The notes under the pieces: generated by a model
Told to the model about the DNA's origin: nothing
The model's database searches: none
What the model saw: only the letters and a program-made list of their open reading frames with translations
From: a phage
Direction: 5' to 3' (one strand)
Sequence record: PX907427.1
DNA length: 6,085 nt
Shown: positions 3,034-6,085 of the stretch, piece by piece
Numbering within the stretch: position 1 is the stretch's first letter
How the letters are laid out: the number at the start of each line of letters is the position of its first letter
Made by a program: the position numbers and the translations under genes

Positions 3034-3057
3034 ATGGGCCTTCGGGCCCTTTAAGGA
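3034..3057 (+). terminator. J-F intergenic hairpin module (GGGCC-TTCG-GGCCC) followed by TTT and the F SD; candidate weak terminator or mRNA-stabilising stem-loop
   Basis: Perfect 5-bp GC stem (3036-3040 with 3045-3049) around a TTCG loop; the 24-nt module atgggccttcgggccctttaagga is repeated exactly at 4364-4387. Confidence 0.5.
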
Positions 3058-3064
3058 AAATTAA

Positions 3065-4360
3065 ATGTCTAATGTGCAAACCTCCGCAGAACGTGAAATT
3101 GTCGATCTCTCCCATCTTGCTTTTGACTGTGGCATGATTGGTCGTTTGAAAACCGTTTCTTGGACCCCTGTTATTGCTGGTGACTCTTTTGAGATGGATG
3201 CCGTTGGTGTACTTCGTCTTTCTCCGCTTCGTCGCGGTCTGGCGATTGACTCTAAGGTTGATTTCTTCACCTTCTATATTCCGCATCGTCACGTTTATGG
3301 TGACCAGTGGATTCAGTTTATGCGTGATGGTATTGATGCAAGTCCTCTGCCTTCTGTTACTTGTAGCCGTTACCCTGACCATGCTGGTTATGTAGGTACT
3401 ATTGTTCCTACGAATAGCCGTATTCCGAAGTTCTTACATCAGAGCTATCTGAATATTTACAATAACTATTTCCGTGCTCCGTGGATGCCTGAGCGCACTG
3501 AGCAGAACCCTTCCAATCTTAATGAGGATGATGCTCGTTATGGCTTCCGTTGCTGCCATCTTAAAAACATTTGGTCTGCCCCTCTGCCTCCAGAGACTAA
3601 ACTGGTTGAGCAAATGGGTATTAAAAGCAATTCCATTGATATTATGGGCCTACAAGCCGCTTATGCGCAGCTTCACACTGAGCAAGAGCGTACTTACTTT
3701 ATGCAGCGTTACCGTGATGTTATCTCCAGCTTTGGCGGTTCAACCTCTTATGATGCCGATAACCGACCGTTGCTTGTTATGCACACCGACTTCTGGGCTT
3801 CCGGTTACGACGTTGATGGTACTGACCAATCTTCCCTTGGACAGTTCTCTGGTCGAGTCCAGCAGACGTTTAAACACTCAGTGCCGCGATTCTTCGTGCC
3901 TGAGCATGGTGTCATGATGACTTTGGCTCTGATTCGCTTCCCGCCTATCAGTCCGTTGGAGCACCATTATCTTGTTGGTAAGTCTCAGTTAACCTATACC
4001 GACCTTGCTGGCGACCCGGCCCTGATTGGTAACTTGCCTCCTCGCGAGATTAGTTATCATGACCTGTTCCGTGATGGTCGTTCTGGCATTAAGATTAAAG
4101 TTGCTGAGTCTATTTGGTATCGTACTCATCCTGACTACGTTAACTTTAAGTATTATGATTTGCAGGGATTCCCATTCCTTGATGATGCGCCTGGTACGTC
4201 TACTGGTGATAATCTTCAGGAGGCTATTCTTGTTCGTCATCAGGACTATGATGCTTGTTTCCAGTCTCAGCAGTTGTCACAGTGGAATAAACAGGCTCGC
4301 TATAACGTTAGTGTTTATCGCCATATGCCTACTGTTCGCGATTCCATTATGACCTCTTAA
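3065..4360 (+). CDS. F: Major capsid protein F, 431 aa
   Basis: Strong match to phiX174 F from memory ([28 protein letters not shown]...FTFY.PHRHVYG). AAGGA (3053-3057) lies 7 nt upstream of ATG 3065. Confidence 0.97.
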
Positions 4361-4363
4361 TTT

Positions 4364-4387
4364 ATGGGCCTTCGGGCCCTTTAAGGA
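4364..4387 (+). terminator. F-G intergenic hairpin module, second exact copy of the 24-nt GGGCC-TTCG-GGCCC element
   Basis: Stem 4366-4370 pairs with 4375-4379, loop TTCG; identical to 3034-3057; followed by the G SD AAGGA (4383-4387) and ATG 4395. Confidence 0.5.
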
Positions 4388-4394
4388 TTTATCT

Positions 4395-4958
4395 ATGTAT
4401 CAGAATTTTGTTACTAAGCACGATACCGCTATTCAGACCTCTCGCTTCTCTGTTACTGGCAATATCACTCCTGTTGCCCCTACTGGTAATATTCCTATTA
4501 TCAATGGTGGTAGCATTACCGCTGAGCATGCTGTTGTTAGTCTTTACGCTAATATGAATGTTGGTACCTCTTCTGATGGTTCTTTCATTGTTGCTATGAA
4601 GGTTGATACCTCTCCGGCTGACCCTAACTGCGTTATCTCTGCTGGTGTTAACCTTAGTTTTGCTGGCACTTCGTACCCGATTGTTGGTATTGTTCGTTTT
4701 GAGTCTGCTTCTGAGCAGCCCACATCTATTGCTGGTAGTCAGATTGAACATTACCCGATTGAAATGTCTGTTGGTTCCGGTGGTGTTTGTTCTGCTCGTG
4801 ATTGTGCTACTGTTGATATTCATCCTCGCACTTTCGGCAATAATGTTTTTGTTGGTGTGATTTGTTCTAGTGCTAAATGGACCTCCGGTCGTGTGCTTGG
4901 TACTATCGCGACTACTCAGGTTATTCATGAATACCAAGTTCTTCAGCCGCTTAAATAA
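4395..4958 (+). CDS. G: Major spike protein G, 187 aa
   Basis: Position after F and conserved blocks versus phiX174 G from memory (VRFES, PRT.GNNV.VG, C-terminal LQPLK). Confidence 0.95.
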
Positions 4959-5041
4959 AAGGCCGCCGCACTCCCGGTTATATGCCTGCCCAGTGTAGGG
5001 CGGACCGAGCCGTACGGAGATACCCGATAAACTAGGAACGT

Positions 5042-5068
5042 GGAAGGCGTTAGCCGCCTTCCCTCCTG
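5042..5068 (+). other. Candidate complementary (-) strand origin element: perfect 8-bp hairpin followed by CTG, of the primase-dependent G4 type
   Basis: ggaaggcg (5042-5049) pairs with cgccttcc (5055-5062), loop ttagc; CTG at 5066-5068 lies 3 nt 3' of the stem. Sits in the only sizeable non-coding spacer apart from H-A (G-H, 4959-5092). Confidence 0.35.
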
Positions 5069-5092
5069 CTAAGCCCAAAAGGAGTTACAGCG

Positions 5093-6085
5093 ATGTTAGG
5101 TGCTGTTGTTGGTGGTATTGCCTCAGCCTTAGCTGGTGGTGCCGCTTCAAAATTATTCGGAGGCTCTCAGCGTGGAGTTTCTGTTATGCAGCAAGGTGCC
5201 GAGTCTGCCGGATTGACTAACGGTGGCGGTGCCATTTCTATGGATAATGACCAAGGTATTCAGTCTGCTATTCAAGGCTCGAATGTTCCTCCTGCTGGTC
5301 AGCTTCCTGAGTCTCAGAATTCTGGTGTTATGGCTGATGCTGGTAATATGCTTCGCAATGCTGGAAAGTCCTTGCTTGACGGAACTATTCAGGCTGGCTC
5401 TGATAAAGTTAAACAAGCCCTTATTGATAAGTTGATTGGAGGTAATGATGCCAAAGATCGAGGAAAAGCCACCCGTGATTACTTGGCTGCGGCCTTCCCT
5501 GAGCTCAACCCATGGGAACGTGCTGGAGCTGGTGCTTCCACTGCCGGGTTAGAGTCCTCTGCTCAGAATCAGCAGAAAGAGATGTTGAAGATGCAATTGG
5601 ATAATCAGAAAGATATTGCAAAAATGCAGATGGATAATAATTTGCAGATTGCTGGTATTCAGTCTGCCACCTCTCGTCAAAATACAAAGGATTCTGTTTA
5701 TGCCCAGAATGAGATGCTTCAGTATAATCAACGTGAGTCGCAGGCACGCGTTGCGTCTATCCTCGCCAACACTGACCTTACGACTAAACAAGCCACCCAT
5801 GAAATTATGAGGATGGCCCTTACCCGCGCTCAGGAGACTGGTCAGCATTTGACTAACTCTCAGATTATGGCTTTGGAGAAAAAGGTTTATGCAGAAATTG
5901 GCAAAATTCATCAAGATACTCAAAATTCTCGCTATGGTAGCTCTCAAGTTACTGCCGCAGCGAAAGACGTTACGAATATGATTACTGATGCCTCTTCAGG
6001 CCTTGCTGATTGGGCTTCTCAGCAGTGGAATTCGTTCTTTAAGGATGGCAAGTCCAACGGTATTTCTTTTAATACTAGAAAATAA
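5093..6085 (+). CDS. H: Minor spike / DNA pilot protein H, 330 aa
   Basis: N-terminal glycine-rich hydrophobic segment GGIASALAGGA.SKLFGG and central block KDTRDYLAAAFPELN.WERAGA...IAGIQSATSRQNTKD.VYAQNEML match phiX174 H from memory. AAGGAG (5079-5084) lies 8 nt upstream of ATG 5093. Stop TAA is the last 3 nt of the window. Confidence 0.95.
   Translation: MLGAVVGGIASALAGGAASKLFGGSQRGVSVMQQGAESAGLTNGGGAISMDNDQGIQSAIQGSNVPPAGQLPESQNSGVMADAGNMLRNAGKSLLDGTIQAGSDKVKQALIDKLIGGNDAKDRGKATRDYLAAAFPELNPWERAGAGASTAGLESSAQNQQKEMLKMQLDNQKDIAKMQMDNNLQIAGIQSATSRQNTKDSVYAQNEMLQYNQRESQARVASILANTDLTTKQATHEIMRMALTRAQETGQHLTNSQIMALEKKVYAEIGKIHQDTQNSRYGSSQVTAAAKDVTNMITDASSGLADWASQQWNSFFKDGKSNGISFNTRK

Follow-up and report, generated by a model that had tools for sequence, protein, structure and literature searches.

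The spacer between genes G and H of an alpha3-like microvirus very probably carries a G4-type origin of complementary-strand synthesis

The window analysed here is a stretch of 6085 nt, taken at its full length, that corresponds to the complete genome of an alpha3-like microvirus, in which the genes are arranged A(B,K)-C-D(E)-J-F-G-H. Genome comparison gave 95% identity to alpha3 over the full length, and the other relatives were found at about 92% (St-1), 91% (Lilleven), 89% (phiK) and 83-85% (the WA13-like group). As in alpha3, all genes of the window lie on the + strand, and the non-coding spacer studied here is read on the packaged viral (+) strand. Since the last position of gene G is 4958 and the first of gene H is 5093, the G-H spacer extends over 4959-5092 and comprises 134 nt, in agreement with the initial annotation, with the ORF coordinates of both genes and with the alpha3 record X60322. 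This spacer had also been described as long for this genome, which is correct by comparison with the spacers of the structural genes (C-D 26, J-F 33 and F-G 34 nt) but not by comparison with the H-A region (1-758), which is longer. The features of the spacer and of its borders are collected in Table 1.

Table 1. Location of the flanking genes and of the observed and predicted elements of the G-H spacer (positions in the window)
Feature	Position	Strand	Basis and remarks
Gene G (major spike protein)	4395-4958	+	ORF; counterpart of the alpha3 G CDS (X60322); upstream boundary of the spacer
Probable complementary-strand origin module (oric)	4958-5089	+	Homologue of the oric located in the G4 F-G spacer
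5' domain, equivalent of G4 stem-loop III	4961-5006	+	Comparative pairing; minimum-energy fold
Local imperfect hairpin CTGCCC/GGGCGG	4986-5003	+	Alternative fold; 3' arm common with the long-range helix
Middle segment	5007-5041	+	Sequence conserved in alpha3-type phages, without G4 stem-loop II
Predicted RNA primer 5'-pppAGGAGGGAAGGCGGCUAACGCCUUCCAC	5040-5067	-	Up to ~28 nt; by homology, from the G4 primer template of 28 nt annotated at 3970-3997
Stem-loop I, GGAAGGCG-TTAGC-CGCCTTCC	5042-5062	+	Perfect inverted repeat and folding
5'-CTG-3', predicted primase initiation trinucleotide	5066-5068	+	Aligns with G4 CTG 3996-3998
Shine-Dalgarno AAGGAG of gene H	5079-5084	+	Sequence reading; 3' edge of the module
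Gene H (minor spike / pilot protein)	5093-6085	+	ORF; counterpart of the alpha3 H CDS; downstream boundary of the spacer

Several observations concern other parts of the genome. One 24-nt sequence, ATGGGCCTTCGGGCCCTTTAAGGA, occurs in both the J-F spacer (3034-3057) and the F-G spacer (4364-4387). It lies immediately upstream of the ribosome binding site, that of F in the first case and that of G in the second, and folds into a hairpin whose stem is GGGCC/GGCCC and whose loop is TTCG; the two copies were cross-matched by local blastn against a relative, and they are likely mRNA 3'-end or stability hairpins. The H-A region, with its 758 nt, far exceeds in length that of phiX174 or G4; within the clade, its identity is 0.85. 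It encloses ORFs of 136 aa (24-434) and 58 aa (524-700), where the alpha3 record X60322 annotates no genes, as well as a terminator-like hairpin (35-58) and, before gene A, a promoter-like site (697-726, score 11/12). Within gene A, the 30 nt at 1002-1031 are 93% identical to G4, against 68-70% for the surrounding sequence, and presumably correspond to the conserved origin of the viral strand (rolling-circle), at which protein A cuts.

Two annotations are given for the F-G spacer in the G4 reference record, an 'RNA primer of replication' (3970-3997) and an 'origin of compl. strand synthesis' (3998). When the window was compared with G4 by blastn, positions 4958-5089 matched G4 3890-4018 with 78.2% identity over 133 nt (E 2e-22), whereas the coding regions matched at 68-72% and gene G gave no alignment at all. 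The matching module is out of gene order: it directly follows F in G4, and gene G intervenes between F and the module in the window. This arrangement, together with the G4 annotation, agrees with the statement in the initial annotation that the origin of alpha3 and St-1 lies between G and H and that of G4 between F and G. The alignment runs without gap through the stretch ...ATGGACGGCGAAAGCCGCCGTCCCTACTGCAAAGCC... of G4 and ...GTGGAAGGCGTTAGCCGCCTTCCCTCCTGCTAAGCC... of the window, and therefore G4 3970-3997 corresponds to window 5040-5067, G4 3998 corresponds to 5068 and the two CTGs coincide. Considered block by block, the 5' and 3' parts of the G4 oric are 84% and 82% identical to the window, respectively, and the two modules have in common stem-loop I followed by three bases and CTG, a long-range helix in the 5' part and a ribosome binding site at the 3' edge (that of G in G4). 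They differ in their location (F-G in G4, G-H in the window), in the presence of a stem-loop II in G4 only, in the loop (GCGAAAGC in G4, GCGTTAGC in the window) and in one pair of stem I, which is C-G in G4 and A-T in the window.

Among the alpha3-type phages, the resemblance is much closer. The G-H spacers of alpha3, St-1 and phiK are 97.1%, 92% and 91% identical to that of the window; alignment with the known origins, which had been named beforehand as one way to check the assignment, thus gave 78% for G4, 92% for St-1 and 97% for alpha3. The origins of alpha3, St-1 and phiK occupy the same G-H position and have the same hairpin I, the same GCGTTAGC and the same CTG, the whole 38-nt 3' block that runs from the hairpin through CTG being identical to that of the window at 38/38 positions in all of them. 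By comparison with alpha3, the window has C4964/G5002 in place of T/A (a compensated pair), a T in place of a G in the loop of the 5' domain and one A fewer before the ribosome binding site of H. The sequences of the negative-strand origins of St-1, alpha3 and phiK, reported there to depend on dnaG (primase), were published by Sims, Capon and Dressler (J Biol Chem 254:12615 (1979), as cited in PMC13037366).

The spacer is under strong purifying selection. In an alignment of 13 complete alpha3-like genomes, its mean pairwise identity is 0.925, against 0.70 for gene G, the least conserved gene in the clade, and 0.83 for gene H; in the same genomes, the third codon positions of F, G and H are at 0.65-0.69 and the other spacers at 0.55-0.87. 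Windows of 20 nt covering 4950-5079 have identities of 0.92-0.99, and identity drops only past the CTG block, near the ribosome binding site of H. Outside these genomes, a metagenome contig that is 72% identical over 2.4 kb has nevertheless an almost unchanged spacer, and the uncultivated viral genome IMGVR_UViG_3300045988_036090 (L013) has a spacer identical to that of the window. This last genome counts 6143 nt and is 94% identical to the window overall; three uncultivated contigs have lengths of 6142-6143 nt, possibly due to assembly overlap at their ends.

For the comparison of structures, 21 distinct spacer sequences (16 of alpha3 type and 5 of G4 type) were aligned. Folded as a whole, the 134-nt spacer has no unusual stability (z = -0.86), and Rfam scans of the window returned zero matches. 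The fold signal of the spacer resides in individual helices and not in a fold of the whole. The first of these is stem-loop I, a perfect 8-bp stem (5042-5049/5055-5062) with a 5-nt loop. As single-stranded DNA, this hairpin has a folding energy of -9.4 kcal/mol (z = -4.35), a value equalled in 0/200 shuffles, and it is the most stable local fold among all the 33-nt windows of the genome (genome mean -1.59, sd 1.49). Its stem is paired in 100% of the 21 sequences, one of its pairs being A-T in all alpha3-type sequences and C-G in all G4-type ones. The tip of the stem-loop (5047-5054) reads GCGTTAGC and fits the mini-hairpin motif GCGNNAGC/GCGNAGC, and the variation of the loop among the 21 sequences (TT, CA, TA, AA, T, A) is confined to the N positions of this motif; the metagenome contig L033, which is not one of the 21, is an exception with GCGTTAGT. 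The mini-hairpin motif has been described in the literature, where hairpin I of St-1 and alpha3 is given with GCGTTAGC at the place of GCGAAAGC in G4 (PMC13037366).

CTG follows stem I after 3 nt, a spacing that is the same in G4, and it is invariant in 21/21 sequences. The 23-nt 3' block, which begins with the 3' arm of hairpin I, includes CTG and ends at AAGCC, exists in one copy in the window and in none of 200 shuffles. T5067 is the predicted template of the first primer nucleotide and, in alpha3-type phages, the exact primer start is deduced from the G4 alignment and from the review PMC13037366. The reverse complement of 5040-5067 is AGGAGGGAAGGCGGCTAACGCCTTCCAC. Read again in the sequence, the elements on which the initial annotation had based its proposal are all in place: the perfect 8-bp inverted repeat at 5042-5062, the CTG just 3' of it and a predicted primer beginning 5'-AGGAGGGAAGGCGG, which correctly complements the template when this is read leftward from T5067.

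A hairpin just downstream of a highly expressed gene could also serve only as a transcription terminator, or as an mRNA-stabilising 3' hairpin of the gene G message. Weak terminators follow the structural genes of phiX174 and, in the window, GC-rich hairpins are also found after J and F (3034-3057 and 4364-4387). However, the stem of hairpin I is followed by CTCCTGCTAAGCCC, in which there is no T-run, and a terminator scan listed three other sites and not this one. Moreover, conservation covers about 130 nt and not the hairpin alone, and in G4 the same block follows F and is annotated there as the origin. We therefore regard a role restricted to the messenger as extremely improbable; an additional minor effect of the hairpin on the mRNA may exist.

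The 5' domain can be folded in two competing ways. In the first one, a long-range helix is formed between GGCCGCC (4961-4967) and GGCGG-A-CC (4999-5006), with A5004 bulged. It is part of the minimum-energy fold of both the window and G4, and 99.3% of its cells are paired in the 21 distinct sequences. Two-sided changes were detected at C4964-G5002, which becomes T-A in 5 sequences, and at G4965-C5001, which becomes A-T in 2 sequences belonging to different sub-clades (Lilleven and L015); in WA45, a substitution of GA by TG moves the bulge and the helix is retained. Compensatory changes affect 1 pair of stem I and 2 pairs of the long-range helix, with none in slid controls, which suggests covariation in both helices through few, possibly linked, events.

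In the second fold, the local imperfect hairpin is made of six pairs, including one G.T. It can nearly always be paired, but via one-sided changes and G.T pairs only, and the compensating substitutions are located at 4964/4965, in the long-range partner, and not at 4987/4988. RNAalifold, used with RNA parameters, favours this local hairpin, extended by 4975-4978/5004-5007; less weight was given to this result because G.T is counted there as a good pair and no two-sided changes are shown. The DNA energies of the two folds, computed for the 21 sequences, are ambiguous, the favoured fold differing between close relatives. Given where the compensating substitutions lie, we treat the long-range helix as the better supported, though not proven, fold of the 5' domain. 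The imperfect hairpin initially reported at 4986-5003 is thus a pairing that does exist, but it competes with the long-range helix, which carries the compensatory changes.

Between the 5' domain and stem-loop I, the middle segment has identities of 0.95-0.99 within the clade in 20-nt windows. Nevertheless, 4/6 pairs of G4 stem-loop II (CGGAGA/TCTCCG) are unpaired in all 16 alpha3-type sequences, the part that matches the 3' arm of this stem-loop is 31% identical to G4 and no stable fold was obtained for the segment 5004-5044 (-2.1 kcal/mol, z = +0.92). Stem-loop II is likewise absent from the spacers of alpha3, St-1 and phiK, which are reported as primase-dependent origins (PMC13037366). With stem-loop II missing, the architecture in three stem-loops described for G4 does not fully carry over; stem-loop II seems to be peculiar to G4 and not a family trait, and would be dispensable in the alpha3-type lineage. 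The same segment contains the palindrome initially reported as CGTACG at 5011-5016. It is present, and in reality corresponds to CCGTACGG at 5010-5017, but it is not conserved: it is disrupted in the G4-type phages, phiK, L014 and WA45, and there is therefore no indication of selection for a palindrome.

At the 3' edge of the module lies the Shine-Dalgarno sequence of gene H; its equivalent is annotated in the alpha3 record M25640 as a ribosome binding site that precedes the start of H by 9-14 nt. Translation of H might be what the 3' part of the spacer mainly regulates, through pairing of CTCCT (5063-5067) with AGGAG (5080-5084) that would limit the low-copy H protein. This pairing belongs to the minimum-energy fold of the spacer, and both segments are conserved among alpha3-type phages. 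It is nonetheless limited to five base pairs, is absent from the centroid structure and has no counterpart in G4, where the corresponding sequences, CTACT and AAGGAC, do not pair; furthermore, it leaves the 5' domain and hairpin I unexplained. A translational control as main function is in our opinion very unlikely and, as the pairing is weak and not common to G4, it would have a secondary role at most.

Considering the sequence features, the homology with G4, the near-identity to the alpha3, St-1 and phiK spacers, the purifying selection and the two compensated helices observed here, we propose that this alpha3-type microvirus has its complementary (minus)-strand origin in the G-H spacer, with a priming signal of the G4 type. 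We give this reading a probability of roughly 93%. The proposal of a G4-type primase-dependent origin, made at first as a candidate, is thereby supported, both by the alignment of the G4 origin and primer annotations and by the near-identity to the spacers of alpha3, St-1 and phiK. The H-A region was considered as an alternative site for the origin; it is not unusually structured and contains no second copy of the motif.

In the minus-strand origin of the Ff phages (M13/fd), hairpins on SSB-coated viral DNA direct a single RNA primer, which is made by the host RNA polymerase and not by primase; this origin is not known to have any sequence relationship to the spacer of the window. In phiX174, also a microvirus, complementary-strand synthesis is likewise started by a structured viral-strand signal, which is a primosome assembly site. 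A site of this type would be recognised by PriA (n') and would require PriA, PriB, PriC, DnaT, DnaB and DnaC in addition to primase, and the spacer resembles one in being intergenic, structured and on the viral strand of a microvirus. Yet a sensitive blastn search with the spacer returned 31 records, all of alpha3 or G4 type and none of phiX174 type, although phiX174-type phages were present in the collection and matched in coding regions; the phiX174 primosome assembly site (PriA/n') itself had no sequence similarity to the spacer in this search. In addition, the G4 origin, to which the block is homologous, requires nothing beyond primase and SSB, in contrast with the multi-protein primosome of the phiX174 pathway (PMC6783573). 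A primosome assembly site in the G-H spacer is, on this evidence, scarcely credible.

We accordingly retain the G4-type origin. In G4, primase and SSB suffice, the primer, of 28 nt at most, is begun at the T of a 5'-CTG-3' located 3' of the stem-loops, and the hairpins keep SSB off the regions bound by primase (PMC6783573). From the literature on G4 and on alpha3, St-1 and phiK, primase and SSB would also be the sole requirement in the present phage, and the exact start of the primer would be the same. The following succession of events can be proposed. (i) The circular viral strand would enter the cell and be coated by SSB. (ii) Stem-loop I (5042-5062) and the 5' domain (4961-5006) would remain folded and offer an SSB-free landing site. 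(iii) The E. coli DnaG primase would bind this site directly, without DnaB or a PriA primosome. (iv) DnaG would begin the RNA opposite T5067 of 5'-CTG-3' and copy stem-loop I, giving a primer of up to ~28 nt. (v) Finally, the DNA polymerase III holoenzyme would extend this primer round the circle to produce the double-stranded replicative form.

Priming sites of this kind are also known outside phages. Plasmids R1 and R100 possess, downstream of oriR, a primase-only site referred to as G4-type ssi, in which a hairpin next to CTG is recognised directly. A profile built from the phage origins gave nothing significant against plasmid R100. At 90,501-90,524 of R100 (NC_002134.1; L037 40501-40524), about 0.8 kb downstream of repA, we noticed a 7-bp hairpin, ATGCCGC-TGAT-GCGGCAT, followed by ATC and CTG. 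It has the same geometry as the phage origins (stem, three-base spacer, CTG), without significant sequence similarity, and it may be the primase-only priming site of R1/R100.

Homologues of the module were found on small E. coli plasmids. Plasmid pRHB29-C22_2 and a sibling are 82% identical to the spacer over 121 nt, and two 8-kb plasmids are 72% identical over the same length; the copies are located at 1083-1205 of CP057337.1 (minus strand; L030 5001-5123) and at 7025-7147 of NZ_CP062859.1 (minus strand; L031 863-985). The carrier plasmids are small and non-mobilizable (9.65 kb and 8.0 kb), and the module lies in an unannotated gap, where it reads antisense to all annotated genes. The genes of these plasmids include an AlpA-like HTH regulator, a Sf6-type small-terminase-like protein and a resolvase, a content that suggests phage-satellite-like elements. 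Compared with the phage, the plasmids have kept the 5' domain and the TCCCTCCTGCTAAGCC block, and hairpin I is rebuilt around GCGAAGC; in the 82% homologue, the 5' domain is nearly identical to that of alpha3, and in pRHB29-C22_2 the predicted fold buries CTG in a stem. The module is rare: a homologue was present in 2/5426 complete E. coli genomes, on plasmids in both cases. A pattern scan of one genome per bacterial species revealed no copy, and Rfam scans of two of the plasmids gave zero matches.

The position of the module relative to gene G differs between G4 and alpha3. One may speculate that the primase-recognition module is a mobile cassette, simpler than the G4 textbook architecture and reduced in the alpha3-type phages to stem-loop I and the 5' helix; the conserved, unstructured 35-nt segment that replaces stem-loop II could contact primase or SSB directly. 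We put this forward tentatively, as an idea that is possible but rather unlikely.

The alpha3/G4-type origin has been a classic model of primase recognition since 1978-79. As the spacer of the window has essentially the same sequence as the origins of alpha3, St-1 and phiK, the element is already known, and the window is a new alpha3-like isolate in which it is re-identified. A literature search gave no usable explicit statement of a location 'between genes G and H', nor of a 'G4-type ssi', and no feature is annotated in the spacer of the alpha3-type records that we inspected (alpha3 X60322 and M25640, St-1, phiK and nine others). The origin can therefore now be placed at 4958-5089, with a predicted primer start at T5067, in the window. 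The main value of the present work is one of annotation, and it has little weight as a discovery. It adds modest detail to the description of the family, namely two covarying helices, a stem-loop II that seems dispensable and a loop whose variation is held to the free positions of the motif, with the exception of one contig. If the module were indeed mobile, it would represent a landing pad for the host primase exchanged between microviruses and plasmid or satellite elements.
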